64,000 nt of DNA, taken from the IMG/VR virus record IMGVR_UViG_3300029922_000004. One strand, given 5' to 3'. Under the pieces are notes generated by a model. It saw only the letters and a list, made by a program, of their open reading frames with translations, searched no databases and was not told the origin of the DNA. Within the stretch, counting starts at the first letter, position 1; the number at the start of each line of letters is the position of its first letter. Of the stretch, positions 4,003-34,777 are shown piece after piece. The DNA comes from a virus. Position numbers and translations under genes: made by a program.

Positions 4003-4308
4003 TTGGAATGGATGCCGCGCCACATTCATTCAAGGGTAGTAATCAAAGATGCTCCGCGCGTATATTTTAAAGATTTATCGGCGGATGGAGTTGTGGGTTT
4101 AGCGTTTGACGAGGAACATAAAATAGTTATAGACCCATCACAATCCCCGCGTGAACTGTGGCTCACTATTTTTCACGAGTGCTGTCACGTCACACTGCCG
4201 AGTCTCAACGAAAAACAAATAGTTAAATTAGAAAAAACTATAGGAGTTCTTCTGTGGAAACAGTTTCTTCGGCTACAACGACAACAGGCAAGGCAACCCC
4301 GCCTTTAA
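4003..4308 (+). CDS. putative zinc metallopeptidase-like protein (HExxH)
   Basis: LWLTIFHECCHV motif; start codon uncertain. Confidence 0.6.
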   Translation: MEWMPRHIHSRVVIKDAPRVYFKDLSADGVVGLAFDEEHKIVIDPSQSPRELWLTIFHECCHVTLPSLNEKQIVKLEKTIGVLLWKQFLRLQRQQARQPRL

Positions 4309-6270: not shown

Positions 6271-7257
6271 ATGACAAAAAACCTATTCGAGTCAGTCGTG
6301 GGTCAGGATGAAGCCAAGAAAAAGTTGGGCTTCTATATCAACGCCTACCACCAAACCCGTATCATGCCTAATCTCCTTTTCGCCGCTGCGAAGGGGAATG
6401 GGAAAAGCCTCATTGCCCGCGAAACGGCCAAACAACTTTTGGCTTATGGCGAAGATGGCAAGCCGCTAATGAAAGAGGATGGCGTCACCCCCAAGAAGAA
6501 AACCTTTTTGGAGATTAACGCCAGCACCATTAAATCAATTCGTCAATTCGTCAACTCTGTGCTTATCAATCATGTGGTGGATAAAGACGTGACGGTTTTT
6601 ATTGACGAGGCCAGCGAACTCAAAAACGACGTGACGATGAGTTTACTAACCATGCTCAATCCTAACGTCACCAACAAAAATACTTTCGTCTATGACGAGT
6701 ATGCGATTGATATTGACTTTGCTCGGCAGACCTTCATCTTCGCTACAACTGAATCGGAACAGATTTTTGCTCCGCTGCTCGACCGCCTAACACGAATTGA
6801 CCTGTGCGCCTATACCTATGACGACCTCGCAAAGATTATTCAAAAGTCCGCGCCGGAAGTTTCTTTCATTGAAGGAGTGTTGGAAGAAATGTCGAAAGTG
6901 GTTCGTGGTAACGCGAGAAATGCAATCAAATTAACTAACGATGTCAAGACATATCTTTGTCGCGAGAAAACTTTCGGGCGTAAATCGTGGGAAGATTTGA
7001 AAAACATTCTGTCCATCAAACCTTTGGGTCTTTCTCCCATTGAGATTTCGATTCTCCGTTTTTTGCAGGAGCGTTTAGAGGGGTCGAGTTTGACCAATCT
7101 CGCGGCCAAAACCGGACTTTCTCGAACTGCACTACAGGCTGATTATGAAAGCGTCTTACAAAAAAATTCGCTCATGGATATTCAGGCCGGAAAAGGGCGC
7201 ATGATTACACCGAGGGGCTTGGAGTATCTGAAAAATCTTGATGCTTGTCCTGCATAA
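6271..7257 (+). CDS. ruvB: RuvB-like Holliday junction branch-migration AAA+ ATPase
   Basis: VVGQDEAK start, Walker A AAKGNGKS, Walker B VFIDE, FIFATT, LLDRL arginine finger, C-terminal wHTH ending GKGRMITPRG. Confidence 0.85.
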   Translation: MTKNLFESVVGQDEAKKKLGFYINAYHQTRIMPNLLFAAAKGNGKSLIARETAKQLLAYGEDGKPLMKEDGVTPKKKTFLEINASTIKSIRQFVNSVLINHVVDKDVTVFIDEASELKNDVTMSLLTMLNPNVTNKNTFVYDEYAIDIDFARQTFIFATTESEQIFAPLLDRLTRIDLCAYTYDDLAKIIQKSAPEVSFIEGVLEEMSKVVRGNARNAIKLTNDVKTYLCREKTFGRKSWEDLKNILSIKPLGLSPIEISILRFLQERLEGSSLTNLAAKTGLSRTALQADYESVLQKNSLMDIQAGKGRMITPRGLEYLKNLDACPA

Positions 7258-11397: not shown

Positions 11398-11417
11398 TAC
11401 TCCCAAATAACTCAAAT

Positions 11418-11443
11418 AAACCCCTGCTTCGGCGGGGGTTTTT
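11418..11443. terminator. bidirectional intrinsic terminator where the two early arms converge
   Basis: AAA CCCCTGC TTCG GCGGGGG TTTTT; UUCG tetraloop. Confidence 0.85.
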
Positions 11444-11465
11444 GTTGCCCAAATTAGGATTGATG

Positions 11466-11529
11466 TAAGTCGTTGATTATCAAGGGGTTACGTGCCGGAG
11501 CCTGTAAGTGGTTGATTATGAGGAATTTA
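11466..11529. repeat. 64-bp double-palindrome element copy 1 (core orientation A)
   Basis: TAAGTCGTTGATTATCAAGGGGTTA cgtgccggagcctg TAAGTGGTTGATTATGAGGAATTTA. Confidence 0.9.
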
Positions 11530-11854
11530 CAACTTTCGGAACCTGATTGTAAAGTTTTTCCACGTCTAAAAACCATCGGGAATCCTTGGCATATACTTTA
11601 TTCAGGAATTGAAAGTAATCGCCGCTACCGTCCCATTTTGCATACTCTTTTTTACAAAGCGCGATACATTTTTGCCGTGCTATCGCATCAGGCCAGCCAT
11701 GAATTACGCCATTAACGCGGTATTCGCATCCGTAGGGGTATTTTAGAGAGTTCTCGTGAACTTTGATACAGTCCGCGAGATGTTCAAAATCAATCGGCGC
11801 GGCGGTAACGTGGATTGCCGCGAATAGAATTGTTGCTATGAGTAATTTTTTCAT
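11516..11854 (-). CDS. secreted/periplasmic protein with signal peptide (possibly lysozyme-like fold)
   Basis: MKKLLIATILFAAIHVTAA signal; LADCIKVHENS..YPYG; fold assignment is a guess. Confidence 0.7.
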   Translation of the reverse strand: MKKLLIATILFAAIHVTAAPIDFEHLADCIKVHENSLKYPYGCEYRVNGVIHGWPDAIARQKCIALCKKEYAKWDGSGDYFQFLNKVYAKDSRWFLDVEKLYNQVPKVVNSS

Positions 11855-12036
11855 TCAAACATCACCTGTTGAAATTGTATCATCCCGCCGGACAAGTCTT
11901 TAATCACTTCCCGCGTTTCGGCGTCCACTGTTATTTTGCCAGTGAGACGTTGGACAAGTGCGGCGTCGGCCTTGTCTTTGATGTAGCCGAGTTTTTTGCC
12001 ATAGACTTCGCGGATGTAAAATTCGATAACTTTCAT
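11851..12036 (-). CDS. hypothetical protein
   Basis: Leaderless promoter TTAACA-17-TATTCT-6-ATG. Confidence 0.7.
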   Translation of the reverse strand: MKVIEFYIREVYGKKLGYIKDKADAALVQRLTGKITVDAETREVIKDLSGGMIQFQQVMFE

Positions 12037-12074
12037 GCTGATAGAATAGCAGAGTTAAACAGGTTTGTTAAGGA

Positions 12075-12428
12075 TTATCCGTAAATTACTTCGCCGAAAA
12101 TTGCCAACTGGACAAAGGCGTCAAAATCCATCGCGTCAGCCTGACCTAGCCATTCTTCCCACTCTTCCCAATTCGCGGAAATCGGCGGTTTGGTGCATCC
12201 CTTCGGCCACTTGTCGGTAAATATCAGGGGAAAAGTTTTGAGCAGAATATCCTTATTAAGCAGATATTCCTTATTATCTTCGCCATCGGAAAAGATAAAG
12301 CCCAAAGTTGAATACTTGAAACTTGTGCATATTAACGAGCTTCCATTGCTCGCTTCGGGAAAGTTGTCCATGATTCCACGGACGATTTTTTCAACCATTT
12401 CATTGGGTATTTCAATAGTAATTTTCAT
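12075..12428 (-). CDS. hypothetical phage protein
   Basis: C-terminus DAMDFDAFVQLAIFGEVIYG; leaderless promoter. Confidence 0.8.
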   Translation of the reverse strand: MKITIEIPNEMVEKIVRGIMDNFPEASNGSSLICTSFKYSTLGFIFSDGEDNKEYLLNKDILLKTFPLIFTDKWPKGCTKPPISANWEEWEEWLGQADAMDFDAFVQLAIFGEVIYG

Positions 12429-12463
12429 GTGAGTAATATAGCAGATTTGTTAGCGGTTGTCAA

Positions 12464-12601
12464 TTAAAATCCACCAAGAAAAGTCAAAATCCATCGGCGG
12501 GAATTATCTTCTTTAATTTCAAAAGTCGAGGTCGCGCCGGTGAAGTGTTTAAGAAACTCCGCGAGTTGTTCAAGACTGTAAAACGTAATTGTTCCATTCA
12601 T
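12464..12601 (-). CDS. hypothetical protein
   Basis: 45 aa; TTGACA-17-TAGTAT-6-ATG. Confidence 0.65.
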   Translation of the reverse strand: MNGTITFYSLEQLAEFLKHFTGATSTFEIKEDNSRRWILTFLGGF

Positions 12602-12717
12602 GCCGAAATACTATCATACCCGCCAAATAATGTCAAGCCAAATCTTTCCAAAATAGGGCTAAATAGGTGATTAGCCCGGTTTATGTCAAGCATAATGTTC
12701 TCTAATCATCACTTCTG

Positions 12718-12781
12718 TAAGTCGTTGAGCATGAGGGGTTTAGGTGTCGGAGCCTGTAACCCGCTGTATTACAACAGGTTA
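12718..12781. repeat. 64-bp element copy 2 (core A)
   Basis: 25+14+25 geometry, core ggtgtcggagcctg. Confidence 0.9.
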
Positions 12782-12792
12782 CAAGATTCGTG

Positions 12793-13026
12793 TTACGAAA
12801 ATTTCGGCGGGACTATTTCGTCACTCCATTTTGCGTTAATCACGTCGTCAAGATTGCATTGCCAGAATTTCGCAATCACGCGCGTAACCTTTTTACGCCG
12901 GAAAGAGTAATCGAAAACGACAGTGACAATTTCAGGACTGCAATCAGGCAAACCAGTTGTCGGATTGTAATTTTGAAGCCAATAGTTGCCGGTCGTTTTA
13001 GGTTTATCGTAAGTCATTACATTCAT
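12793..13026 (-). CDS. hypothetical protein
   Basis: 77 aa; own promoter. Confidence 0.7.
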   Translation of the reverse strand: MNVMTYDKPKTTGNYWLQNYNPTTGLPDCSPEIVTVVFDYSFRRKKVTRVIAKFWQCNLDDVINAKWSDEIVPPKFS

Positions 13027-13076
13027 GCGTTAAGTATGCCAGAAAATTATCAATTGTCAAGTAAAAACTTCTCTTA

Positions 13077-13140
13077 TAACTCCCTCATTATCAAAGGGTT
13101 ACACGCTCCGGCGCGGAAGTCGTTGAATTGCAACGGGTTA
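13077..13140. repeat. 64-bp element copy 3 (core B, inverted)
   Basis: Core cacgctccggcgcg; terminal TTA is the stop codon of the adjacent gene. Confidence 0.9.
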
Positions 13141-13383
13141 GCAATCATATTCAAGATACCGATTGAGAATTTCCGCATCTTGCGGGCGAGATTCGAGTTT
13201 TAATGAAACGGAGTTCCCCCAAGTTTGATAGGCGGCATTTTCTTCCCTGCCAATGCTGCAAAAACCAGCCGAAACTGGTATGCCGTATTCAACTTTAACT
13301 TCACTATGCTGCAACAATGGACTGAAAACAACCGCCATCTCAATATCCCTTTTTTCGAAAATTATGTATTTTGATTTGGTCAT
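13138..13383 (-). CDS. hypothetical phage protein
   Basis: KYIIFEK..AVVFSPLLQHSEV..VSAGFC..WGNSVSLKLESRPQD. Confidence 0.7.
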   Translation of the reverse strand: MTKSKYIIFEKRDIEMAVVFSPLLQHSEVKVEYGIPVSAGFCSIGREENAAYQTWGNSVSLKLESRPQDAEILNRYLEYDC

Positions 13384-13460
13384 TTTATTTGATTTTTGTC
13401 TTGACACAGTAAAGAATCGCCGCGATAAAAAGGCAGATTTCCATAAGTTTTGCTAATCGG

Positions 13461-14156
13461 TCAGATGACGAAACCGCTTGCATCAGTTTTCGCTTTGCCC
13501 TTTTGTTTCAAACCGACGACGACGTTGCGCGGGTCGTTAAAACGTAAATCACTTTCGTCGCCATTTACAATTTGCTTTCCAAGATATTCAGCTTGCAAAC
13601 TTTCGCGGAAAACTACCGCGACATTTCCGCCAGCAGCCAAAACCTTTTCAACATCGGCCTGATTTGATTCCGAACGGGAAAAGGTTAGATGATAATTTGC
13701 AGGCAATTCGCCGTTAGCATGACGCAAGGCGCGGGCGGATGATTTTGTGTAATCGTAAAATTGAATATCTGGAAAAATTTCCATGATATTTTTACCGTCA
13801 AATTTGATGCTTTCCCATGCTAAATCGCTTGTCCCATTTAATCTGCACGCGACTTTCATTTTCGCTTTTGCACCGCGTTTAATGAGCGCGGAAATTTCTT
13901 TAACTAATTGCTTCCCATATTCGGCGCGATTAGAGAAGAAAAGTTTTGTGCGATTGATACGTCCTTCATTTACAGCCTTGTAAATTCCGCCGAAACCAGC
14001 CGTAAAAAGACACACCGCTTTGCACCCTTCGGAAGCATTTGGGCAGGTATTTACGCCGCTTGCCATTGCGGGGGCAAGGTATTGAATACCCGTTAAGTAA
14101 CCGAGTTTTTCACCTTTGACAGTTTTGGCGTCATTTCCAACAGATAGTAATTTCAT
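13461..14156 (-). CDS. Gp88-like protein (radical-SAM-like Cys motif)
   Basis: NTCPNASEGCKAVCL, RLNGTSD, QFYDYTK, YHLTFS, GDESDLRFND motifs as in mycobacteriophage gp88-type proteins. Confidence 0.75.
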   Translation of the reverse strand: MKLLSVGNDAKTVKGEKLGYLTGIQYLAPAMASGVNTCPNASEGCKAVCLFTAGFGGIYKAVNEGRINRTKLFFSNRAEYGKQLVKEISALIKRGAKAKMKVACRLNGTSDLAWESIKFDGKNIMEIFPDIQFYDYTKSSARALRHANGELPANYHLTFSRSESNQADVEKVLAAGGNVAVVFRESLQAEYLGKQIVNGDESDLRFNDPRNVVVGLKQKGKAKTDASGFVI

Positions 14157-14343
14157 TCCCTAGAGAATATCAGACTACGCGGCCAATGTAAAGGAAATTT
14201 TGAACTTATTTTGGACTAATTTTTTCGCAACTTTCGTAATATGCGCGTAATATGGCACAATAATTGCTCAACTTTTCCCTAATAATGGTAATAAGAGTTT
14301 CTAATGTCATCACCGCGCGGGTAGTGCGCGAGTAATGCGTGGG

Positions 14344-14407
14344 TAAGTGCTTGATTATGAGGGGGTTACGCGCCGGAGCCTGTAAGTTCCTGAATATCAA
14401 TGGGTTA
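14344..14407. repeat. 64-bp element copy 4 (core A)
   Basis: Core cgcgccggagcctg. Confidence 0.9.
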
Positions 14408-14409
14408 TG

Positions 14410-14583
14410 TTAATCCTCGAAAGATTCCGGCAGGTTTTTCCAGATTCCATGAGTTGCTTCAACAGCCGCAAGCCGCTTTTGTTTTTGGCGGTCGCTTAAC
14501 TTTGTTTTGTCCGGCACGACGCGGACGGGATTAAAACCCCACGTTTTGCGGATTGATTTGATTGCTTGGAGTTGAGATTTCAC
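14410..14583 (-). CDS. small basic hypothetical protein
   Basis: GTG overlapping the upstream stop; IRKTWGFNPVRVVPDK. Confidence 0.6.
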   Translation of the reverse strand: MKSQLQAIKSIRKTWGFNPVRVVPDKTKLSDRQKQKRLAAVEATHGIWKNLPESFED

Positions 14584-14756
14584 AGCGGGGAAAATGGTTT
14601 TTCTTTAGCAATTTCATCGGCCAACGCCTTTTGCGCCAAGTCAGAATGAATATCGGTTGTCGGCAATTCGGCGATGGGATAGTATCCGTGACTGCCAGAC
14701 CAAACTAGCCAGACTTTTCCGGTTGATGTTGGCCAGTTGATGAGTTTGATTTCCAT
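14580..14756 (-). CDS. hypothetical protein
   Basis: 58 aa; TTGACA-17-TAATCT-6-ATG. Confidence 0.65.
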   Translation of the reverse strand: MEIKLINWPTSTGKVWLVWSGSHGYYPIAELPTTDIHSDLAQKALADEIAKEKPFSPL

Positions 14757-14787
14757 ATCAAAAGATTACCACATTCAGGCTACAATG

Positions 14788-15060
14788 TCAAGCACAATTT
14801 TTACCAATCATGCGGGTTTGATTTTGCATATTGGTTTTGATACGATAAACGCCGAGGCCAAGCGGTTTAATATCCACATATTCAACCTTGCCTTTGATAA
14901 TCACGGAAAAGTTTGTGATTAAAATGTATTCCGCCAAATCTTTTTTTACGCGAATTGCATCGTCTTTTGATTCACAGCGTCGATTAACGAGCCAAGAGCG
15001 CAAATCTCCCAAACGCTGTTCAATTGTCAGTTTGCGAGTTTTCACTAATGCTTCATTCAT
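14788..15060 (-). CDS. hypothetical protein
   Basis: TTGACA-16-TATTCT-6-ATG. Confidence 0.7.
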   Translation of the reverse strand: MNEALVKTRKLTIEQRLGDLRSWLVNRRCESKDDAIRVKKDLAEYILITNFSVIIKGKVEYVDIKPLGLGVYRIKTNMQNQTRMIGKNCA

Positions 15061-15166
15061 TCCAATAGAATATCATACCCGCGCTAAATGTCAAACCATT
15101 ATTTCATTCAATTATCAATTATTATCTTGACAAACCTTCTATGATATAGTAAGGATGGAATCTTCA

Positions 15167-15230
15167 TAACCCTTTGATTCTAAAGGGTTTATAGGCTCCG
15201 GCGCGTAACCCGTTGAAACTAAACGACTTA
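15167..15230. repeat. 64-bp element copy 5 (core B)
   Basis: Core taggctccggcgcg. Confidence 0.9.
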
Positions 15231-15298
15231 TGAAAGTGTTACCACAAAAGAAAAACGCCGCGCAGTTAAGCACGGCGTGAGGTGAGATGCTGCGGAGA

Positions 15299-15652
15299 TT
15301 ACGCGGCGGCGGCAACATGGCCGGAGTTGCGCCAAGTTGACTTAACATATTTCCGGGCTTTGGGCGTCAGGACTGTAAAGCCCGCGAAGTTCACGCTCAA
15401 AACTCGTTCAGAACGGAACGCGATAAACTTTTCGTGATTGTGCGCGGATAGCGCGGTGAACAACGTATTGCCCGCCGTTGATTTCCAAGCGCGGTTGCGC
15501 GGATTGCCGACGATGGTATATGTTTGAATTGGCCGGTTTGAATTGCGCGAGTCAATCGGGTTGTAAAGCACCTTGTAAGTAGGGGCAATGAAACCAGTTT
15601 TGAACGCGCCGATAATGGCGAGGATGAGGAGGGCGATGAGGAGTGTGAACAT
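15299..15652 (-). CDS. membrane-anchored hypothetical protein
   Basis: Hydrophobic N-terminus; CAGTTAAA leader. Confidence 0.7.
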   Translation of the reverse strand: MFTLLIALLILAIIGAFKTGFIAPTYKVLYNPIDSRNSNRPIQTYTIVGNPRNRAWKSTAGNTLFTALSAHNHEKFIAFRSERVLSVNFAGFTVLTPKARKYVKSTWRNSGHVAAAA

Positions 15653-15740
15653 AACTGTTTTTGTATTTTTTTGGGACTGTTTTTTTTGTTTGTTTTTGTT
15701 TAACTGACAGGGAATAGATTAACAGATTGCGCGGCGGTTG

Positions 15741-15989
15741 TCAAGCCTTTTCCGCCAGATTATCAAAGAAAATTTGCGGTTCAAGTTTTTGTGTAGAATA
15801 CTTTTTGCTGGCGAGCCATTGATTGATATGTTTTGAAGTCGTGCGGCTCCATTTCTTCCCTGTGATATAGGCAATACCGCCTAGGAGACCGCGACTAACA
15901 GCCGCAACGGGTGTTTGATAAGAAAAAAGGATGTCCATTCCATCAATGGTTACTTCGGTTTGATTTGGCGCGAGTTGTTTTAATTTCAT
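15741..15989 (-). CDS. conserved phage hypothetical protein
   Basis: ILFSYQTPVAA..KKWSRTTSKHINQW motif. Confidence 0.8.
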   Translation of the reverse strand: MKLKQLAPNQTEVTIDGMDILFSYQTPVAAVSRGLLGGIAYITGKKWSRTTSKHINQWLASKKYSTQKLEPQIFFDNLAEKA

Positions 15990-16089
15990 ATGCGAAAACT
16001 ATATCAGATTGCCGTAAATAGTCAAGCCAATAAATAGCGGTTCTGCGACGTTTTTCTCTTGACATCTCACGCGTTTTCTGTTATGTGCG

Positions 16090-16153
16090 TAAGTCGTTGA
16101 ATTGCAGGGAGTTACACGCCGGACCCCGCAAGTGCTTGATTATCAAACACTTA
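16090..16153. repeat. 64-bp element copy 6 (core A)
   Basis: Core cacgccggaccccg. Confidence 0.9.
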
Positions 16154-16170
16154 CGGAAGTCTTGCGAACG

Positions 16171-16614
16171 TTACAATTCGACTTGCTTGATGAGTTTAAC
16201 GGCATCGGCCACAAAGTAATCTTTCCGGCGGCAATTTAACACTTTCACGCCGATGCTGCGAAGAAAATCCCAAAGTTTTTCATTCCAAAACTTGACGAGG
16301 TGTTCAACCGTGCGCGTTCTACCGAGCGGGATAAACTTGTATTGGCGGCGAACATTCATGGCGATTGCTTCCCAAACGATATAATCATTGCCGAGAATTT
16401 CAGAGTTGTTTCTGACAAAGCGGTTGGCTTGCTCGCGTGTTTTGCAGACAAAAATACCCGAACCGGCCAAACGGATATTTGGAATTGTCCACGTTTGCGT
16501 CGAATATGACAAGCCAAGAAAATTTTTGATTTCAATCGGCGTGAGGGGATAAGTCATAAGGCAGGACTGACACGCTTTGGTGGTGACTTTATAGACGGTA
16601 GTAAATGTTTTCAT
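16171..16614 (-). CDS. hypothetical protein
   Basis: ATG16614 after the CAGTTAAA leader. Confidence 0.7.
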   Translation of the reverse strand: MKTFTTVYKVTTKACQSCLMTYPLTPIEIKNFLGLSYSTQTWTIPNIRLAGSGIFVCKTREQANRFVRNNSEILGNDYIVWEAIAMNVRRQYKFIPLGRTRTVEHLVKFWNEKLWDFLRSIGVKVLNCRRKDYFVADAVKLIKQVEL

Positions 16615-16753
16615 GTTGGCGATATTGTTATGGTTGACGTTTAACTGTTGACAAGATACCAGATTGCCCGCGAGAGTCAAGGGAATAAATCGCCGCCTTG
16701 TGTTATTATTAGCTTGACAAAGGCGCGGGATTATGGTATGGATTGCGCCGTCG

Positions 16754-16817
16754 TAAGTTGTTGATATTCAACGAGTTAGCGGCTCGGGCGCGTAAACCCC
16801 TGATTATGAGGGGCTTA
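16754..16817. repeat. 64-bp element copy 7 (core B)
   Basis: Core gcggctcgggcgcg. Confidence 0.9.
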
Positions 16818-16898
16818 CGCCGGAATTATTTCCGCCGGAAAAACCATTTAATGCGCGTCAGGCCGTTGGAGTCAAAGTAGATGCAGATTTTCATGGTG

Positions 16899-17063
16899 TT
16901 AATCGCGCAGGTTTTCGATGTTGACAATCGCCGCCGGTATCTTGGAAAGTCCAACGTGCTTTTCCATGATTAAGTAACGCTCAACCGTGCCATAAGAAAC
17001 TTGGCCGGTGAAAGTGTGGCGGTAGGTTGTGCCGTTGAGTTTGTAAGTAAGTATTGTTTTCAT
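16899..17063 (-). CDS. hypothetical protein
   Basis: 54 aa; own promoter. Confidence 0.6.
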   Translation of the reverse strand: MKTILTYKLNGTTYRHTFTGQVSYGTVERYLIMEKHVGLSKIPAAIVNIENLRD

Positions 17064-17082
17064 GTGTGGATAATGTAACAGG

Positions 17083-17451
17083 TTAATTGTTGTTTGTCAA
17101 GATAAAAACCGCTAGGAGTTCTTTAATAAAATCTTGGTCATTGTCCAGCGTGATATTGTGATTCTGGCCGCCGGTATAATCAGAAAAATCTTTTGCCGTG
17201 CGAACGAGCATTGTATCTTTGAACCAGCGCAAATCGCTGATTGAAAAATAAAATATCCGCCCGTCAGACAATTTGAAAAACCCGCTGGCGTCAAAATGGT
17301 TAGGCTTGGAAACTTTAATATCGGTCACGCCGATTGATTTCAAAAACGCGGTAAATTCACGCTTGAAAAGTTTATGCCACGCCAGATATTGCGGCGTTCT
17401 ACCACTGGACAATTCAAAATTTTGTTTAGTTGCAAGGATGAGTTTTTTCAT
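17083..17451 (-). CDS. conserved phage hypothetical protein
   Basis: NHFDASGFF..YFSISDLR..MLVRTAKDFSDYTGGQN; TTGACA-17-TAGTCT-7-ATG. Confidence 0.8.
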   Translation of the reverse strand: MKKLILATKQNFELSSGRTPQYLAWHKLFKREFTAFLKSIGVTDIKVSKPNHFDASGFFKLSDGRIFYFSISDLRWFKDTMLVRTAKDFSDYTGGQNHNITLDNDQDFIKELLAVFILTNNN

Positions 17452-17461
17452 ATAAGAAAGA

Positions 17462-17815
17462 CTAGCAAAGATATTTGTTTTTGTCAAGGGTAAAATGAAT
17501 ATCATTTCGCTCATTAAGCCAGCAACTTTTCACGGTCGCCACGTCAAAATCAGGGAGCAAAGCAATCGCAATATCAAACCGCGAATCATAACCAATTCTA
17601 ATAACGATTTTGATTATTAAACCGGCGGGATTGGTTTCAACTTCAATAATGTTGGCGCGTGTGACTTCGACAACAAACGGCGGCTTTGAAATTATCCCAT
17701 ACCTGTCATTGATGCACGAAAGTTTTGCATGGTGGGAATATGTTAGGCGATACTTGCGCCCGAAAAAGTATTCCGCCGCTTTCGGCAAACCCAGTTGGCT
17801 ATGATATAATGCCAT
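17462..17815 (-). CDS. conserved phage hypothetical protein
   Basis: LTYSHHAK..DRYG..VKSCWLNERNDIHFTLD; own promoter. Confidence 0.75.
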   Translation of the reverse strand: MALYHSQLGLPKAAEYFFGRKYRLTYSHHAKLSCINDRYGIISKPPFVVEVTRANIIEVETNPAGLIIKIVIRIGYDSRFDIAIALLPDFDVATVKSCWLNERNDIHFTLDKNKYLC

Positions 17816-17920
17816 GAGGAAACACTAGCAGAACCGGGGAAAGAGTAAAGGAGTTTTTTAAGTTATTGTTATTTATTATCTTGACAAGGGGATAAGATTA
17901 TGGTAAGGATGAAAACTTCG

Positions 17921-17984
17921 TAAGTCGTTGATTCTAAAGGGTTTATGCGCTCCGGCGGGCAAGTGGTTGATAATCAAGGGGATA
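17921..17984. repeat. 64-bp element copy 8 (core B)
   Basis: Core tgcgctccggcggg. Confidence 0.9.
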
Positions 17985-18089
17985 TGAGATTGGCCGCGCC
18001 AGCGAACTTTCGTCCCCTTATTTATAACAACCGTTATCTTTGTGAAGTTTGGCCAAACAAGTCACAACATTACGGTCGGCGCGTTAAAT

Positions 18090-18165
18090 TGGTAACGGGT
18101 GGCCGAATCGAACGACCGAACTTTGCGTTATGAGCGCAACGAGATAACCACTTCTCCAACCCGTA
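18090..18165 (-). tRNA. tRNA-Met(CAU), initiator-type scaffold, encoded CCA
   Basis: UACGGGU UG GAG AAGUGGUUAU CUC G UUGCG CUCAUAA CGCAA AGUUC GGUCG UUCGAUU CGGCC ACCCGUU ACCA; 76 nt; 1:72 mismatch and A11-U24 as in fMet. Confidence 0.9.
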
Positions 18166-18169
18166 AAAT

Positions 18170-18236
18170 TCTAGTCTGTTACTCCGTTGTGCGTTTCGCG
18201 CAAGCGCGGACTAGCAACCCCGATTCACAGACAAGA
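18170..18236 (-). ncRNA. candidate structured RNA between the cloverleaf and tRNA-Met
   Basis: UCUUGUCUGU/ACAGACUAGA closing stem, UCCG/CGGA, UGCG-CGAAA-CGCA hairpin. Confidence 0.4.
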
Positions 18237-18246
18237 TTCTAAAATT

Positions 18247-18320
18247 TGGTGGACGTATCGTGCCGCCTACGCCGGATTTTTACCGGAGGTCAAAGGGACT
18301 TATTCCAGTAACCTAACACT
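18247..18320 (-). ncRNA. 74-nt degenerate cloverleaf ending in CCA
   Basis: Promoter TTGACA-17-TAAAGT; stems UGGA/UCCA, GUC/GAC, CCGG/CCGG, CGUA/UACG. Confidence 0.45.
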
Positions 18321-18618
18321 CTTAAAACTTTACACTATTTCTCAACTATTGTCAAGATAAAAAACATGGCGTATTATCGTTTTATATCACCGCGCCTACG
18401 GATTGCTGAAACGCATTACGGGTAATCCCATGCTCGAACTCGTGTCCCCGCTTTCTTTTCATCAGATAATTGTCAACTAATCGTTCGTTCCTACTAGAAT
18501 CGCTAACAACAAAGATATATTAGCAGATTGCCGCGAATACGCAAGGGAAAAACCTCACTATTTACGCTAAAAACTTCTTGACATTCTCCCGCGTTTGTGG
18601 TATAGGAGCAAAATCGCA

Positions 18619-18683
18619 TAACATGTTGTATTTCAAGGACTTACAGGCTCCCCCCGCGCAACCCATTGGTAATCAACGGGTTA
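18619..18683. repeat. element copy 9 (core B, 15-bp core)
   Basis: Core caggctccccccgcg. Confidence 0.9.
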
Positions 18684-18692
18684 CGCTGGCAA

Positions 18693-18908
18693 TTATTCGT
18701 TGAGATAATCGTCGGCTTCGCGGTCGTTGTAATCCTGCAAATCGTCTTCGCCGCTGCCCGCGCCGGAATAGTCGAGTTCGTGACGGTCTTCCCATGACGC
18801 ATCAAGATAGGCGTCTTCCGCGAACTCGGTTGTAAAATCCGGTGTTGACATTTGCGTCAGTGGCGTGATTTCAGACTCGCTCGGCAGATTCGTGAATTGG
18901 TTACTCAT
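18693..18908 (-). CDS. small acidic protein
   Basis: D/E-rich (EDAYLDASWEDRHE..EDDLQDYN); could be a DNA mimic (inference). Confidence 0.7.
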   Translation of the reverse strand: MSNQFTNLPSESEITPLTQMSTPDFTTEFAEDAYLDASWEDRHELDYSGAGSGEDDLQDYNDREADDYLNE

Positions 18909-18964
18909 ATGCGAATACAATATCAGAGTTGGAAATTTTGTCAAGAACTATTTTAACATTTTGC

Positions 18965-19028
18965 TAACTCGTTGAATATCAAGCGGTTATGCGCCGGGGC
19001 GCGTAAGCCGTTGTGGTTAAACAACTTA
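18965..19028. repeat. 64-bp element copy 10
   Basis: Core tgcgccggggcgcg. Confidence 0.9.
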
Positions 19029-19040
19029 CGCGGATTTGAT

Positions 19041-19259
19041 TTACGAAACTTTCACCGCTGCCGATTTAATTTCCGAAACATAAACGTCGCCCATTTCCGT
19101 GCAAAACGGTGAGGTTACGCTGCAAAACCATCTTGCGAACGGCTTATTGTCGTCCACTTGCCATTTCTTCAAGACTTTCCACGTCCAGCTTCCATCCAGC
19201 GTTCGCCAGACTTCGTAAGGGTTGGAAACCGGACGAGTTTTTGCACATTCATTTTTCAT
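19041..19259 (-). CDS. conserved phage hypothetical protein
   Basis: WTWKVLKKWQ..ARWFCSVTSPF.EMGDVYV; leaderless promoter. Confidence 0.8.
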   Translation of the reverse strand: MKNECAKTRPVSNPYEVWRTLDGSWTWKVLKKWQVDDNKPFARWFCSVTSPFCTEMGDVYVSEIKSAAVKVS

Positions 19260-19290
19260 GGTTGTATATTAGCAGAGTTGGGGTTGACTG

Positions 19291-19467
19291 TCAAGAGAAA
19301 ATTTGCTGCGTCCAAACAATGTCGCCATTGCAGAAAATTGTCACGGGGACTTTGCGGGCAACCATTGCATGAGCAAAACGCATCGCATCATCCAAACTGT
19401 CACGCGCGGACGGCGCGGGAAAGTGCATTGTGAAGTTCGGCGTTTTGGCGGTGTAAATCTTTTTCAT
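19291..19467 (-). CDS. hypothetical protein
   Basis: TTGACT-17-TATTCT-6-ATG. Confidence 0.65.
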   Translation of the reverse strand: MKKIYTAKTPNFTMHFPAPSARDSLDDAMRFAHAMVARKVPVTIFCNGDIVWTQQIFS

Positions 19468-19498
19468 GGTTAAAGAATAGCAGGGTGAAAGGGAAAAG

Positions 19499-19636
19499 TC
19501 AAGATAAAAGTTGCTCAATTTCAGTCCACCCCATAGAGCGCAATTCGTTGACAATCGCGGTGTCAGTTGGGGGAATGTTTTGAGCCATCAGTCTTGCGAC
19601 GATTGCCCGAATAATGTCAGCGCCATAAGTAATCAT
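19499..19636 (-). CDS. hypothetical protein
   Basis: 45 aa; TTGACT-16-TAGACT-6-ATG. Confidence 0.6.
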   Translation of the reverse strand: MITYGADIIRAIVARLMAQNIPPTDTAIVNELRSMGWTEIEQLLS

Positions 19637-19732
19637 TCGATAAGTCTATACTATTCCCGCCAATAGTCAAGGGATTTTATTTTTATTCATTATTTACTTG
19701 ACAAGGCGCGGGGATTATAGGCCGCGATGTTG

Positions 19733-19796
19733 TAAGTCATTGAATATCAACACGTTACAGGCTCGGGCGCGTAAACCCTTGGTAATCAAGAGGTTA
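19733..19796. repeat. 64-bp element copy 11 (core B)
   Basis: Core caggctcgggcgcg. Confidence 0.9.
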
Positions 19797-19806
19797 CGCT
19801 AACCGT

Positions 19807-20370
19807 TCAAAACTCGTTTGCTAGGTCGTTAAACTTTTGCACGTTATCCGCGCCGATTAACGCGGCGAGCTTGTGATACAGTCCGCCGCAATGGTCGTAA
19901 ATGTTTTTCGCTTTGATACTATCGGCGTCATAGTCGAAATTTGCAGCCCAATTTTCAAAACTTTCATCATGCGCGGCCAAGGCATCACGGCAATAAGACG
20001 CCAAAACTTCGTAAGACTTCGGCGTGACCTTTTGATTTTTCGCAAGTTGCGCGGCGGTGCTGGCGTGAAGTTGTTTGTTTTTGAATGACACGCTAGAATT
20101 GCGCTGGACGGCATAAACAACGTTCTCTTGGTCGGCGGATAAGTGATGAACAAAAGAGCTTGGCGTTTTGATTTTCCAATCCACATGACCCACGCCTAAA
20201 CGATACTCCAAAGACAACGGCGAATTTTGCCGCCCTGAAAATATCAAATGGAAAAGAATATGCGGCCAATCCCCTTGCACGTCACCCAAAGGCACGGAGA
20301 TGGACACGGTTAAATTTAGGGTTTCAAAAAGCTCTTTGGCTTTCTGGTTTGCGAGTTCGTAATCTTTCAT
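19807..20370 (-). CDS. conserved phage hypothetical protein
   Basis: YEVLASYCRDA..SFENWAANFDYDADSIKA motif; leaderless promoter. Confidence 0.8.
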   Translation of the reverse strand: MKDYELANQKAKELFETLNLTVSISVPLGDVQGDWPHILFHLIFSGRQNSPLSLEYRLGVGHVDWKIKTPSSFVHHLSADQENVVYAVQRNSSVSFKNKQLHASTAAQLAKNQKVTPKSYEVLASYCRDALAAHDESFENWAANFDYDADSIKAKNIYDHCGGLYHKLAALIGADNVQKFNDLANEF

Positions 20371-20477
20371 GCGAATAGAGTAGCAGAATTGCGGATAGAG
20401 TCAAGAGAATAAATCGTCGTTTTGGAGTATTTTTTCCTTGACTTTTGCTATATTCTCTGCTATAGGAAACATCGTTG

Positions 20478-20541
20478 TAAGCCGTTGATTTGCAAGGGTT
20501 TGCGGGGTCCGGCGCGGAAGTCGTTGAATATCAAGGGGTTA
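20478..20541. repeat. 64-bp element copy 12 (core B)
   Basis: Core cggggtccggcgcg; terminal TTA is the stop of the adjacent gene. Confidence 0.9.
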
Positions 20542-20712
20542 TGAATCTGATTGATGCAAGACTCCATCACGGGCGCTCGTGCTTAAGCGATAAACTTTTT
20601 TGCCGTTGGTTTGAAAAGTGTGGATTGTCACCCTGCCGTTGAGTTGGTCAACCTGAATAATGAGAGTGCCGAGTTCGGTTTTGATTTCAATAGGTGACTG
20701 GATTGTTATCAT
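20539..20712 (-). CDS. hypothetical protein
   Basis: 57 aa; stop lies in the element. Confidence 0.55.
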   Translation of the reverse strand: MITIQSPIEIKTELGTLIIQVDQLNGRVTIHTFQTNGKKVYRLSTSARDGVLHQSDS

Positions 20713-20713
20713 A

Positions 20714-20887
20714 TTATTCCATCACTCCTTTGATTGCTTCCCGCGCGGCACTCGCTGGTGTTGCACCGTCATCATACAAATCCCGATAGCAAATGTCCGG
20801 CAAATCCGCCGATGATAAACCGATGCTGTTTTCAATCACGCGGTCAACCGCGTCCATCCATTTGTCGAAGGTGTTATATTTTTGCAT
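20714..20887 (-). CDS. conserved small phage protein
   Basis: FDKWMDAVD..GLSSADLPDICYRDLYDDG; leaderless promoter. Confidence 0.7.
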   Translation of the reverse strand: MQKYNTFDKWMDAVDRVIENSIGLSSADLPDICYRDLYDDGATPASAAREAIKGVME

Positions 20888-20917
20888 AAAGTAAGATTAG
20901 CAGATTTCGCGGGAATG

Positions 20918-21082
20918 TCAAGGATTAAATCGCGCCAAAATCGCTTCGACATCAGCTTTCGACAAGTAACAAAGGCTGGTTTCGCTGTCAAATTCCAAGC
21001 GAACATCGCCGTCCTTGTCCGGCAAACTCACTTTGGTTTTCGGCAACTTGCCGACGGTGATTATGTGGGGCTTTTCATTCAT
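20918..21082 (-). CDS. hypothetical protein
   Basis: TTGACA-17-TATACT-6-ATG. Confidence 0.65.
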   Translation of the reverse strand: MNEKPHIITVGKLPKTKVSLPDKDGDVRLEFDSETSLCYLSKADVEAILARFNP

Positions 21083-21103
21083 GCGCGAAGTATAGTTGAA
21101 AGA

Positions 21104-21277
21104 TTAGAGAATGTCAAGGGTTAATTGTGAAGCATAAAAGTCAGCAATTCCGCCGTCATCGTCAAATTTTATCCAAACGACGTTAAAACCTTCCTCCAAG
21201 TCCACAACGACACCTTTGATTGTATCTTTGATTCCCACTGGTGCAATTACTCGGTCCCCAATCTTAAATTTTTTCAT
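21104..21277 (-). CDS. small SH3-like protein
   Basis: FKIGDRV..GVVVD..VWIKFD; TTGACA-17-TATATT-6-ATG. Confidence 0.7.
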   Translation of the reverse strand: MKKFKIGDRVIAPVGIKDTIKGVVVDLEEGFNVVWIKFDDDGGIADFYASQLTLDIL

Positions 21278-21313
21278 GGCTTAAATATAGTTTATTTTGA
21301 TTGATTTGTCAAG

Positions 21314-21436
21314 ACTTTTTCGCAACTTTTCTTAAATAGGGCTAAATAGTGTTTTACCCAACTTTTCGCCACTTTTCTCAAATAGTCGTAAATAGCGCAA
21401 GTTTTCCCAAGTTTTCTCAAATAGGGTCAAATAGTA
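21314..21436. repeat. three phased repeats TTTTC-N5-TTTTC-N2-AAATAG-N4-AAATAG
   Basis: Copies at about 21314, 21361 and 21400; sub-motifs spaced 10 bp apart. Confidence 0.8.
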
Positions 21437-21504
21437 AAATCCGCGCTCACGCCAGTTTCGCCCGATTCCGCCGCCTGACGTTATCGTTAAAGCCGGGGTT
21501 TTCG

Positions 21505-21605
21505 TAACCTGCTCTGACTCAACGGGTTACACGCGCCTCCCAGCGTTATCGTTAAAGTGTCCCGTTTCGGGACAGATTTGTAAGTTGTTGGTTTTCATCA
21601 TGTTA
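21505..21605. repeat. split variant of the element (two 25-bp arms whose starts are 76 bp apart)
   Basis: Arms 21505-21529 and 21581-21605, with CGTTATCGTTAAAG repeats and a TGTCCC/GGGACA hairpin nearby. Confidence 0.65.
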
Positions 21606-23551: not shown

Positions 23552-24079
23552 ATGGAACAGTTATTGTTATTTAAAGAATGCGGTGAGTGTAGTAAAAAGA
23601 AACATAATAAAATCATTAAATTCCCTCATTGGATTTATTGGAAACACGATGAATGTGAAGGATGTAATCTAGTCTTAAGCATTAAAACCCTTAGTCAAAT
23701 ACATTCCTTTTTGCGGCAACGAGAATGGGACAGAGCTAAACTAAAGCGGTCTCCAATATTAAGATTGAAGCAAAACTTACGTAATCGGGTAAGAAAGATA
23801 TTAAAAACAACAAATCAACCTAAATTCAACATCAGTAAGTCAAAATTAACAGGATGTACCAATTTATTCCTTAAACAGCATCTTGAACCACAGTTTAAAG
23901 AGGGAATGACTTGGCAAAATTACGGTTCTGGAAACGATGAATGGAATGTTGACCATATTAAGCCCATGAGTAGATTTGATTTGTCTAAATTAGAAGATTT
24001 AAAACTTGTAAATCACTATACTAATCTACAACCAATGTGGGCAGAAGATAACGGTAGAAAAGGTGATAAATATGAGTAA
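23552..24079 (+). CDS. HNH/endonuclease VII-like endonuclease
   Basis: MTWQNYG..WNVDHIKPMSRFD..NHYTNLQPMW..NGRKG. Confidence 0.8.
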   Translation: MEQLLLFKECGECSKKKHNKIIKFPHWIYWKHDECEGCNLVLSIKTLSQIHSFLRQREWDRAKLKRSPILRLKQNLRNRVRKILKTTNQPKFNISKSKLTGCTNLFLKQHLEPQFKEGMTWQNYGSGNDEWNVDHIKPMSRFDLSKLEDLKLVNHYTNLQPMWAEDNGRKGDKYE

Positions 24080-24665
24080 AAAACAACAAATTAAAGAAAT
24101 AGTCTTATTTAAGACCTGCACCTCTTGTCTTATAGAGAAGCCTTATCAAGAGTTTAGAAATCAATCTAACACTAAAGACGGATTAACGTCTTATTGTCAA
24201 AAATGTATCCAAGACAAACGCAAAGTAAAATACGCCCAAGACCAAAATTACAAAGAGAAATGCGTCAAACAAGTAAAAGCATGGCAGTCTAAAAATCGAC
24301 CACACATGAAATCACAACAAAAACAATATTCTCAAAATAATCCTTGGGCCAGACTATCTGGTTCTTTAACTAAACGATTAAAACGTAAAACAGGTCTCAT
24401 CAGCAAAGTCCAATTGAAGCCCGCCGAATTCAAGGCCTACATCGAATCCTTATGGTTACCGGATATGACTTGGGAAAACTACGGTAAGCTATGGGAGGTT
24501 GTAAGAATAAAAGCGATTATTGAATTTGACCTGCATAATCCCGCCGAGGTTGTTAAAATTAACCATTATACTAATCTCACCCCCGATTACAAAGCCAACA
24601 GATTTGAAAAACAAAGAAAAAATAAAACCAATTCTCGACTTTTAAAATTACCCAAGATTATTTGA
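24063..24665 (+). CDS. HNH-like paralogue with a degenerate catalytic motif
   Basis: CTSC..CQKC zinc finger; MTWENYGKLWEVVRIKAI replaces WHxDHIKP. Confidence 0.7.
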   Translation: MINMSKKQQIKEIVLFKTCTSCLIEKPYQEFRNQSNTKDGLTSYCQKCIQDKRKVKYAQDQNYKEKCVKQVKAWQSKNRPHMKSQQKQYSQNNPWARLSGSLTKRLKRKTGLISKVQLKPAEFKAYIESLWLPDMTWENYGKLWEVVRIKAIIEFDLHNPAEVVKINHYTNLTPDYKANRFEKQRKNKTNSRLLKLPKII

Positions 24666-24940
24666 ATATCATACTACTAATAGTGGTATCTTATTTTTTG
24701 TGTCAATAGGTTGTATAAATCAAATCATTCAGGTCAAAAAATGGACGAGCCTAAAAATCTTTGAAAGTAAAGTGTCTCAAAATAAGACAAATTAACCAAA
24801 TTTAAGTAAAGATAAAAAAATTGTATTTTCCTATATGCTCTTCTATCTCTCTAAGGATGATTAAGGTAAAAATTGGCCGGAGGGTTTTAGATTTGTAAGC
24901 ATTTTTACGTAAGAAAGTCTAATAAATCAATATAATAAAT

Positions 24941-25514
24941 ATGACAAGAATATGTAATATTTGTAAACAAGATAAACCAATAGAAGATTTTTACTTAACG
25001 TCTAAAAAGAAGTGGAGACAGCGTAGTTGTAAGATATGTGCCAGTATAAAGAGCAACGAAAGATATCACAAACACCCCAATAAACAATTAATTATGGCGG
25101 CCATGAAGAATTGGAATATCAATAATAAAGACAAAATAAAAAAATATCGTGCAAAGTATATAAAATCTCCTGCGGGTAAGATAGCAACGACACTGAGAAG
25201 AAGAATCAAAGATATATTAAAATCCCCAGTTTCGTTTTTAATATCCAAAACGATTGGGTGTTCGCCGTCGGAATTGAAAATACATCTTGAATCTAAATTT
25301 AAGGAAGGAATGACTTGGGAAAATCACGCATTTTACGGCTGGCACGTGGACCACATCAAACCTATTAGTAAGTTTGATTTAAATAATCCAGAAGAAATAA
25401 AAAAAAATAAATCATTATACCAATTTACAGCCATTATGGTGGCAAGATAATTTACGAAAAGGAAATACTGAAACTCTATTCCTACTTGTTGCGACAGACA
25501 ATCAAAATAATTAA
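24941..25514 (+). pseudogene. HNH endonuclease with a frameshift in an A9 tract
   Basis: WHVDHIKP in frame; the conserved NHYTNLQPLWWQDNLRKG continues in the +1 frame from 25407 to TAA 25514. Confidence 0.7.
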
Positions 25515-34670: not shown

Positions 34671-34777
34671 TATGTTTAAAATCCTATTGCCTTTTTCATG
34701 GTTTCCAATATAATTTTTATCTGCCCCGTGAGAATTAGTCACACTTTTAGTGTAATTTACTTATAATACCTAGAATT

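Follow-up and report, generated by a model that had tools for sequence, protein, structure and literature searches.

A repeated 64-bp element with paired arm sites at early gene cassette boundaries of an uncultured large phage

Results and discussion

The early genes of an uncultured large phage (IMG/VR record IMGVR_UViG_3300029922_000004) are interspersed with twelve copies of a 64-bp element, at which gene cassettes have been exchanged, gained or lost between relatives. All twelve (E1–E12) lie between positions 11466 and 20541 of the window, by which we mean the whole 64,000-nt stretch analysed, itself part of a 186-kb genome. The reading we prefer, at a probability of roughly 45%, is that the element is a double-stranded, IHF-like protein-docking boundary module that would organise early transcription units, with crossover as a by-product. 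This judgement is drawn from sequence comparison, and we weigh it below against four alternatives.

Anatomy and gene context of the element

Each element consists of a 25-bp arm, a 14-bp core and a second 25-bp arm; only the copy at 18619 differs, with a core of 15 bp. Seen as a whole, it is two tandem quasi-palindromic sites of 25–27 bp, 39 bp apart centre to centre, with a GC-rich spacer between them. With up to one mismatch, the arm pattern TAA-N4-TTG-N5-CAA-N4-TTA matches the window at 19 places, where shuffles predict 0.62, and these matches are confined to 11466–21605. The twelve copies listed in a first-pass annotation are therefore far above chance, and the fixed spacing it described recurs in every one of them. 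To these we add a split thirteenth copy at 21505..21605, in which two arm-like sites (with two and one mismatches) are separated by a 51-nt linker with a small hairpin.

The core orientations given earlier, four forward and seven reversed, were also confirmed. It reads forward in E1 (11466..11529), E2 (12718..12781), E4 (14344..14407) and E6 (16090..16153) and reversed in E3 (13077..13140), E5 (15167..15230), E7 (16754..16817), E8 (17921..17984), E9 (18619..18683, the 15-bp core), E11 (19733..19796) and E12 (20478..20541), and it is nearly palindromic in E10 (18965..19028). The two arms of the window copies are mostly direct rather than inverted.

The surrounding region holds about 35 small leftward genes with their own promoters. 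In 10 of the 12 copies a leftward gene stops −14 to +17 nt from the element, in agreement with the proximity noted before; as also noted, the terminal TTA is itself a stop codon in two copies, E3 (gene 13138..13407) and E12 (gene 20539..20712). The last codons of gene 11516..11854 extend into E1, which lies opposite the rightward block's terminator, and E8 lies 105 nt after a tRNA-Met gene. A terminator search of the window found no terminator-like site coinciding with any element. The earlier statement that intrinsic terminators are absent thus holds for the elements themselves but not for their neighbourhood: a canonical terminator (15255..15278, minus strand) serves gene 15299..15652 and lies between that gene and E5.

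Arm sequence and the case for an IHF-type protein

The arm consensus is GTAAGTCGTTGA-WWW-TCAAGGGGTTAC. The pattern first proposed for the arms is real and enriched, but it is exact in only 6 of 24 arms, with one mismatch in 13 and two in 5. Nor do its N positions vary freely, as had been supposed: the left N4 tends to GTCG and the right to GGGG, and a G preceding the arm and a C following it are also conserved.

An exact match to the IHF-site consensus, the 13-mer WATCAANNNNTTR, occurs 19 times in the 9.2 kb from 11400 to 20600 and 9 times in the other 54.8 kb, an enrichment of about 13-fold. At least one exact copy is found in 33 of 48 arms across three phages. The claim that every arm half carries the consensus can be kept only in part: the motif is there and enriched, but its 19 occurrences leave most of the 48 half-arms without a full match. 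No HU/IHF gene was found in the records of five relatives, which fits a host factor.

Several observations sit less well with IHF. IHF sites are normally asymmetric, and in the IHF–H′ structure the protein kinks DNA at points 9 bp apart. The inverted TTGA/TCAA halves of the arm place two CA/TG steps 7 bp apart, so a single dimer cannot read both halves. IHF also does not explain the conserved GTCG and GGGG or the flanking G and C.

We propose the following arrangement. An IHF-type DNA-bending host protein, or alternatively another dimeric DNA binder common to the hosts of several phage lineages, would occupy the arms, and the stiff GC-rich spacer would hold the two arm sites apart. Occupied elements would then divide early transcription units from one another, each lying immediately behind the stop of a leftward unit, upstream of the next unit's promoter and often directly in front of a promoter-like site aimed into it. 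Recombination at the elements would be a by-product of dispersed conserved repeats, as for the PeSLs of T4, with no dedicated recombinase.

Promoter-like sites aimed into the elements

Promoter-like sites on the plus strand point into six of the copies. The site before E5 (15127..15155) consists of TTGACA, a 17-nt spacer and TAAGGA, with no T at −7, and ends 11 nt from the element; the sites before E7 (16714..16742, hexamer TATGGA), E8 (17881..17909, TAAGGA) and E12 (20438..20466, TATAGG) keep the same distance. Before E6 (16059..16087) the hexamer is TATGTG and stands 2 nt from the element, and before E9 (18578..18606) it is TATAGG, in a site that is kept in phage B, a diverged 194-kb relative. 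A seventh site, before E11 (19698..19726, plus strand), has TTGACA but is doubtful, since the sequence 17 nt further on does not resemble a promoter hexamer. The absent −7 T and a fixed −40 distance characterise the sites in the window and in phage B alike. Their transcription start is predicted 4–5 nt before the element, and arm 1 occupies about +5 to +30 relative to them. An element downstream of inward promoter-like sites is not in the classical IHF position, which counts against IHF as the occupant.

Motifs of the sigma54 type occur in the same setting. In the window, which has mostly sigma70-like sites, TGGCAC-N5-TTGC is found at 14253..14267 (plus strand), 77 nt left of E4; it is kept in phage B, which has two more such motifs beside EB4 and EB5, its own elements. 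In relatives, sigma54-type motifs stand in place of the promoter-like site, and many of them aim into the element with a predicted start a few nt from its edge. The element geometry was also found in three other phages, G001, G006 and G012. In G012, which has no tblastx match to the window, all six sigma54-like motifs fall in the same 5 kb as the elements, and in G006 13 of 15 fall within the 3 kb that hold its elements. Sigma54-type motifs co-cluster with the tandem paired sites in G006, G001, G012 and phage B.

An IHF-assisted sigma54 promoter is built as an upstream activating sequence, an IHF bend and a −24/−12 promoter. The clustering of IHF-consensus sites with TGGCAC-N5-TTGC in these four phages resembles that arrangement, as does the position of elements in G012 and G006, about 65–140 bp upstream of an outward motif. 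The resemblance is incomplete, however: many motifs aim into the element, the window is mostly sigma70-like, and no enhancer-binding protein (bEBP) was found in the relatives.

The same data raise an alternative that we regard as possible although unlikely, namely that a sequence-specific dimeric regulator other than IHF uses the arms as operators or enhancer sites. This could be a host enhancer-binding protein for the sigma54-type promoters or a phage early or shut-off regulator; an oligomer assembled on the two palindromes, 39 bp apart, would then control the neighbouring promoter-like sites. The palindromic arms with conserved positions beyond the IHF core, the co-clustering with sigma54-type motifs, the elements upstream of outward motifs in G012 and G006, and the location of arm 1 at a classical operator position all favour it. 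However, no Sigma54_activat (bEBP) gene was found in the five relatives' records, and the AAA+ protein of the window is RuvB- or clamp-loader-like, not a bEBP. Because the site is present in unrelated phages such as G012, a phage-encoded regulator would need to be common to them. The inner half-sites, 7 bp apart, would probably also be tight for helix-turn-helix dimers.

Sigma54-type sites and sigma70-like sites without the −7 T bind polymerase and open poorly unaided. It is tempting to speculate that the element and its inward promoter-like site form one undescribed device, in which polymerase would be parked against a protein-bent double site, but we hold the odds of this to be low.

The element as RNA or DNA

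It is improbable that the element works as RNA, whether as a terminator, as a pair of processing or stability hairpins in early mRNA 3′ ends or as a small RNA made from the inward promoter-like sites. Its location 0–17 nt past stop codons and the predicted starts just before it would suit such a role. So would phage G011 (L124), in which the arms make good hairpins with A and T runs on either side, as a bidirectional terminator does.

Against this, base pairing within the arms is 76.4%, compared to 76.1% in shuffles, that is, there is no covariation. The mean folding energy of the arms is −5 kcal/mol, often near zero, whereas a genuine terminator of this window reaches −15.8, and folds of the whole element are inconsistent on both strands. 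No window copy is followed by a T run, E5 already lies behind a canonical terminator, and an Rfam search gave no match. In most arms it is the plus strand that pairs better, and this strand is antisense to the genes. A different phage (L104/L119) keeps the conserved arm positions, yet its arms pair with each other and not internally. An intrinsic terminator, for which there was also no coinciding terminator-like site, is disfavoured, and the lack of covariation, the weak and inconsistent folds and the blank Rfam search together argue that the element acts as double-stranded DNA. The first-pass annotation had offered a recombination site or a protein-wrapped roadblock; protein-bound DNA does fit better than RNA, but an active recombination site is not supported, as described below.

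Conservation and cassette junctions in relatives

We compared the window with phage B and with a 96%-identical lineage (L283). Of nine pairs of window and phage B elements, eight have cores that are 86–100% identical, the ninth (E7/EB7) being at 71%. Those eight pairs have at least one arm at 84–96% identity, above many of their flanks, which are at the random level of 0.52; E4, for instance, is 91% identical with both flanks at that level. E6 has no positional counterpart in phage B.

The cassette between E2 and E3 has been swapped relative to phage B, which keeps arm 1 and the core of E2 but not its arm 2 or right flank, and the core and arm 2 of E3 but not its arm 1. Both junctions therefore lie at the border of core and inner arm. 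Elsewhere in phage B, a single E9/E10 hybrid element, EB9, replaces both E9 and E10, making the gene between them an indel. The 96%-identical lineage has an extra cassette, which joins at most 5 nt from the outer edge of E5 arm 1. The junctions thus vary by event between the outer arm edge, the inside of arm 1 and the core/arm border. Breaks in homology fall on elements in 8 of 21 cases, compared to the 11% of the region that elements occupy (P ~0.001), a statistic taken from HSP ends that is biased because conserved elements align by themselves as short segments. In the closest lineage one gene swap, at 14583–14759, lies away from any element. Nevertheless, the proposed role as a cassette boundary is supported by these swaps and indels, whose joints lie within elements or at their edges; gain and loss between relatives are bounded by elements, but the crossover position is not constant and one swap falls elsewhere.

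A site-specific recombination site of the attC, dif or lox kind, at which a recombinase would exchange or invert cassettes in the core, would account for the E2–E3 junctions, the hybrid EB9, the extra cassette joined at an element edge and the presence of the core in both orientations. The element also shares with attC, lox and dif the inverted binding arms round a spacer, the location at the cassette 3′ end and the cassette junctions. Yet an attC site is active as a folded single strand that has extrahelical bases, and the spacers of lox and dif are 6–8 bp; tyrosine recombinases use an overlap of about half the 14-bp core. Linker lengths in relatives vary (7, 12, 14, 25, 48 and 51), each gene has its own promoter, and the junctions take three positions rather than one fixed crossover in a 6–8-bp spacer. 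Core orientation is the same at all eight informative orthologous sites in the diverged phage B, which argues that the core is not an active switch, and no orientation variants were found in 100%-identical assemblies. We looked for recombinases in window ORFs and in relatives' records. None was found among the 30 window ORFs screened with Pfam, and neither Phage_integrase (tyrosine recombinase) nor Y1_Tnp/RAYT appeared in the five relatives' incomplete records. Unrelated phages carry the element as well. The active dif/attC-like or invertible site suggested earlier is thus not supported by these comparisons, and we consider this reading improbable.

Comparison with known repeats

BIME-1 elements (RIB/RIP) are IHF-binding REP doublets of enterobacteria (PMC3333891). 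Least probable of all is that our element is a selfish repeat of this REP/BIME kind, spread by a RAYT or an IS200/IS605-type enzyme acting on single-stranded hairpins. In its favour, the arms are imperfect palindromes of 25–27 nt in which a 5′ GTAA is conserved and a stem mismatch recurs, and they form extragenic doublets at gene 3′ ends with linkers of set but variable lengths; REPs also bind IHF and serve in insulation and at mRNA ends (PMC3333891). However, REP/BIME are chromosomal, RAYT-associated and built of stable GC-rich hairpins in inverse orientation, and their IHF site is in the linker. In our element, which is carried by a phage, the arms are AT-rich, weakly pairing, without compensatory changes and mostly direct; it is the arms that bear the IHF-type motif and the linker that is GC-rich. 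A diverged relative has its copies at conserved orthologous positions, no Y1_Tnp was found in the five relatives' incomplete records, and no GC-core doublets were found among 120 bacterial genome matches.

The boundary module that we favour has its closest counterpart in the promoter-early stem-loop (PeSL) cassettes of T4-type phages, which combine one terminator stem-loop with one promoter (Arbiol 2010, PMC2839356; Comeau 2014, PMC4122927). As in the PeSL system, short conserved regulatory repeats separate the small, functionally uncharacterised early genes of a hyperplastic region, adjoin near-consensus sigma70 promoters and are where indels and replacements between close relatives join (PMC2839356; PMC4122927), the swap at 14583–14759 being the counter-example. 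Unlike a PeSL, our element has two quasi-palindromes and a GC spacer in its 64 bp and shows no sign of a hairpin. Its promoter-like site aims inward without a T at −7, and in relatives that site is replaced by sigma54-type motifs.

Implications for phage early regions

It is mainly in their early regions that large phages store unknown, fast-changing genes, and to our knowledge the shuffling and insulation of such genes are understood for few systems, among them the T4 PeSLs. The early region described here appears to be a second solution, different in structure and with a clear anatomy: a conserved, predicted double protein-site and a companion promoter-like site seemingly built not to open. 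Its relatives provide direct comparative evidence of cassette exchange at the module, and the arm pattern with its fixed spacing gives a sequence handle on early regions and cassette borders in contigs of uncultured phages.

If the notion of a parked polymerase were true, the device would be a boundary for transcription or supercoiling, or a polymerase sink, between early units, and it would be common to unrelated phages of sigma54-bearing hosts. If instead the inward promoter-like and sigma54-type sites fire, part of the early programme would run on host sigma54 with IHF, a mode with hardly any documented case in phages.

Architecture of the elements

We confirmed the twelve copies of the 64-bp element (E1 to E12, from left to right), at the positions first described, as arm(25)-core(14)-arm(25), one of them with a 15-bp core. 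Allowing at most one mismatch, the arm pattern is found 19 times in the 64 kb against 0.62 expected, exclusively between 11466 and 21605, and this range includes a thirteenth copy (21505-21605) whose arms are split by a 51-nt linker. Core orientation is also as first described, forward in E1, E2, E4 and E6 and reversed in E3, E5, E7, E8, E9, E11 and E12; the core of E10 is nearly palindromic. The first-pass annotation had described the N positions of the arm as freely variable, which is wrong. Forty-eight arms from three phages give the consensus GTAAGTCGTTGA-WWW-TCAAGGGGTTAC, whose halves are not alike; the arm is therefore directional. Each half-arm had also been said to match the IHF consensus: the exact 13-mer does occur 19 times in the element region, where it is about 13-fold enriched over the remaining window, but under half of the 48 half-arms carry it.

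Genes here are leftward only, from about 23250 down to 11516, and for most of them a near-consensus sigma70 promoter of their own lies just a few bases upstream of the ATG. In 10 of the 12 copies the element begins between -14 and +17 nt from the stop of the right-hand gene, and in two its final TTA is the stop codon, in line with the original description. Equally, none of the copies overlaps a terminator-like site, and a canonical terminator at 15278-15255 precedes E5; for these reasons we rejected the idea that the element terminates the right-hand leftward gene.

Distribution in related phages

The window comes from a large uncultured phage whose contigs reach 186 kb. Its terminase large subunit (TerL) gene, at 30366-32210, has no cultured relative closer than about 25%, and megablast against cultured phages returned no match to the element region. 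Several assemblies from ENA, Logan and JGI contain the phage itself (99.7-100% identity), with no variant at the elements. One JGI assembly (L288) differs only by a single substitution and a 30-nt in-frame deletion at 18807-18836, within the gene 18693..18944.

Phage B is a diverged relative on a 194-kb contig (L296/L297), with roughly 70-85% nucleotide identity to the window over alignable stretches. The 20 kb analysed contain ten elements, with the geometry and core consensus seen in the window. More distant relatives that have structural genes in common with the window vary the theme: in G001 and G006 the geometry is 25-14-25 but the GC core is a different one, which again occurs in both orientations; in G010 (L103/L105) the linker is 25 nt long, and in L012 there are linkers of 7 and 48 nt. 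The unit is therefore the arm, and each lineage has its own linker. G012, a 77-kb phage with no tblastx match to the window, also has three clear GC-core elements of 25-14-25 geometry.

Most TerL-based IMG/VR loci end before the early region. Early proteins used as IMG/VR queries gave either no matches or unrelated phages without elements, and a core-specific pattern gave chance matches only. Among the 120 matches listed for the doublet pattern in 185,579 bacterial genomes there were no GC-core doublets; these matches, most of them from Bacteroidota, consisted of single AT-rich arms plus a few doublets with AT cores. The single arms, TAA-N4-TTGATNATCAA-N4-TTA, and the few AT-core doublets occur in Cytophagales and Saprospiraceae (L161, L172, L211 and others), and could be due to a host-protein site or to base composition.

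A candidate binding protein

On both strands the invariant bases of the arm (TCAA, four free positions, TTA) make up the core of the IHF consensus. Motif enrichment, occurrence in unrelated phages and sigma54-type motifs nearby favour an IHF-type host protein, and we counted the failure to find an HU/IHF gene in five relatives' records as pointing to the host as well. Arm symmetry and the extra conserved positions argue against such a protein, as do the two CA/TG steps 7 bp apart in the arm, whereas IHF kinks DNA 9 bp apart.

We favour reading the element as a protein-bent boundary module and put the probability of this at roughly 0.45. An IHF-type bender, or an equivalent host-range-wide binder, would occupy the two adjacent sites, which the rigid GC spacer would hold apart. 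The module would then close one early unit and organise the promoter region of the next, working together with a polymerase-binding site that faces it.

The arms could instead be bound by a specific dimeric regulator, a reading that arm symmetry would fit and that we consider unlikely. No evident partner for the element emerged among the window products with domain matches, namely an AAA+ protein (6271-7257, RuvB- or clamp-loader-like, with a C-terminal winged helix, kept in relatives), a 225-aa protein with a weak sigma70 region 2 match (26574-27251) and the products of four HNH/endonuclease VII-like genes that flank the early block (4238-5089 and 23552-25450). Genes for a Sigma54_activat domain (sigma54 enhancer-binding protein, bEBP), a tyrosine recombinase or a Y1 transposase were not found in the relatives' records searched. 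A 184-aa protein at 2517-3071 matches Imm5-like immunity protein families (Pfam E 2.6e-10).

Duplex DNA or RNA hairpin

The element acts as DNA and not as a hairpin. In the 48-arm alignment, a symmetric 12-pair arm helix is 76.4% paired compared with 76.1% in column shuffles, there is no excess of compensatory changes, and the middle four pairs are mostly mismatched, with recurrent G-G. Single arms fold at a mean of -5 kcal/mol, many of them near zero, against -15.8 for a real terminator in the window. RNA folding of all copies on both strands revealed no common structure, the folds varying between copies, and Rfam at gathering thresholds had no match in the whole window. Perfect hairpins do occur in some arms of the phage G011 (L124) but not in others, with the conserved positions kept; in the contigs L104 and L119 these positions are also kept, yet each arm has its pairing partner in the other arm instead of within itself. 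Conservation thus falls on positions at fixed spacing, which reads as the signature of protein contacts on duplex DNA, and an RNA function for the element is distinctly unlikely.

The G011 elements (L124 156-1623 and 4375-4438) are 25-14-25 and lie between A runs and T runs; several of their arms are perfect 8-bp hairpins, and they resemble bidirectional intrinsic terminators. L104 (4506 bp) and L119 (5442 bp) come from separate samples in IMG/VR, and each contig folds back on itself perfectly: it matches its own reverse complement at 100% identity, and exactly at the apex, the contig centre, sits a 25-14-25 doublet with a palindromic core. An assembly artefact, a hairpin end or a template-switch hotspot could each account for this arrangement. 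These contigs showed no protein similarity to the window.

Exchange of cassettes at the elements

The elements had been proposed to mark gene-cassette boundaries, and comparison with relatives supports this: swaps and indels join at elements, but some changes lie elsewhere. In eight of nine window/phage B pairs the cores are 86-100% identical (71% in the ninth, E7 and its phage B counterpart EB7), and in the same eight at least one arm is 84-96% identical, with many flanks at random level. At E2, phage B shares arm 1 and the core but neither arm 2 nor the right flank; E3 has the reverse pattern, and between the two phage B has an unrelated 199-aa gene in place of the window's 77-aa gene. Together, this conservation pattern and the gene replacement indicate that a cassette was exchanged along with its two inner arms. 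In phage B a single hybrid element, with the switch inside arm 1, stands in place of the window's E9, E10 and the gene between them. A 96% identical lineage (L283, L293 and L294) carries an extra unit, consisting of an element, a 116-aa gene and promoters, whose junction with the window sequence lies at the outer edge of E5, to within five bases, and which is also present in phage B. Overall, 21 homology breaks were counted between the window and phage B, eight of them within the elements plus 10 nt, which occupy 11% of the sequence (P ~0.001); the elements' own conservation inflates this count.

Elsewhere, a 58-aa gene (14583-14759) is replaced in L293 and L294 by an unrelated 65-aa gene, exactly from the start codon to the start of the next gene, with the promoter retained and no element involved. 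The E1-E2 unit, too, differs internally.

The junctions described above show recombination at the elements. Because junction positions differ, we read the exchange as homology-driven between dispersed conserved repeats. That the element is a dedicated site-specific recombination site is very unlikely, since recombinase sites have a fixed crossover and a short spacer, both absent here. Nor is the core an active invertible switch: its orientation agrees between the window and phage B at each of the eight informative orthologous pairs, so the two orientations are old and stable. Because the inner half of one arm is an inverted repeat of the inner half of the other, rare flips by template switching would be enough to explain the orientations.

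Promoter-like sites that point into the elements

The sequence TTGAC(A/T) stands exactly 40-41 nt to the left of E5, E7, E8, E9 and E12, and is followed after 17 nt by the hexamers TAAGGA, TATGGA, TAAGGA, TATAGG and TATAGG, respectively. We term these plus-strand sites, which point into the element, P+. E6 has a similar site at a shorter distance (hexamer TATGTG), and that of E11 is doubtful. None of the P+ hexamers ends in T (position -7), whereas those of the leftward gene promoters all do. The P+ sites (15127-20466 in the window, and the left flanks in phage B) combine a consensus -35 with a 17-nt spacer and, in many cases, a TG, and are placed back to back with the promoter that serves the following leftward gene (families D8 and D13); given the usual spacing, a start site would fall 4-5 nt before the element. 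The 20 kb of phage B contain five such sites at the same -40 distance, again without the T at -7 (TAATGA, TATGGG, TATAGG and TAAGGC). A tie between core orientation and P+ was considered and rejected: the core is reversed in six of seven copies with P+ and in one of four without, which is not significant, and E6 and G001 are counterexamples.

A further family of repeats, CAACTTTTC..AAATAG..TAAATAG, occurs at 21313-21434, 14218-14295 and 12638-12666 with a partial 10-bp phasing; it lies upstream of some leftward promoters and next to elements without P+. TAAATAG repeats also occur in G001 (L097 12100-12140).

Three sigma54-type motifs lie beside two of the elements of phage B. In G006, 13 of 15 matches to TGGCA(C/T)-N5-(C/T)TGC fall inside the 3 kb holding elements, as do three of five in the element-bearing stretch of G001, and all six sigma54-like motifs of G012 lie within the 5 kb holding its elements. 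Several phages have very good motifs of this type (TGGCACG-N4-TTGCT) clustered in their early regions, frequently paired back to back next to elements (L127 of G006, 399-2893; L097 of G001, 12265-13437; G012, 33037-37371; L296, reverse strand, 13788-14284; the window, 14253-14267). To our knowledge, sigma54-type promoters are barely documented in phages.

Relation to known systems

Among the nearest known systems in function are the promoter-early stem-loop (PeSL) cassettes of T4-type phages (PMC2839356, PMC4122927) and REP/BIME doublets, which bind IHF and insulate transcription (PMC3333891). The element lacks the stem-loop that characterises both, and a REP-like selfish repeat is the least probable of the readings considered. 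The element belongs with the regulatory repeats that border and shuffle early cassettes. Its unusual companions, the inward-pointing, opening-deficient promoter-like sites, could prove more novel than the element itself.
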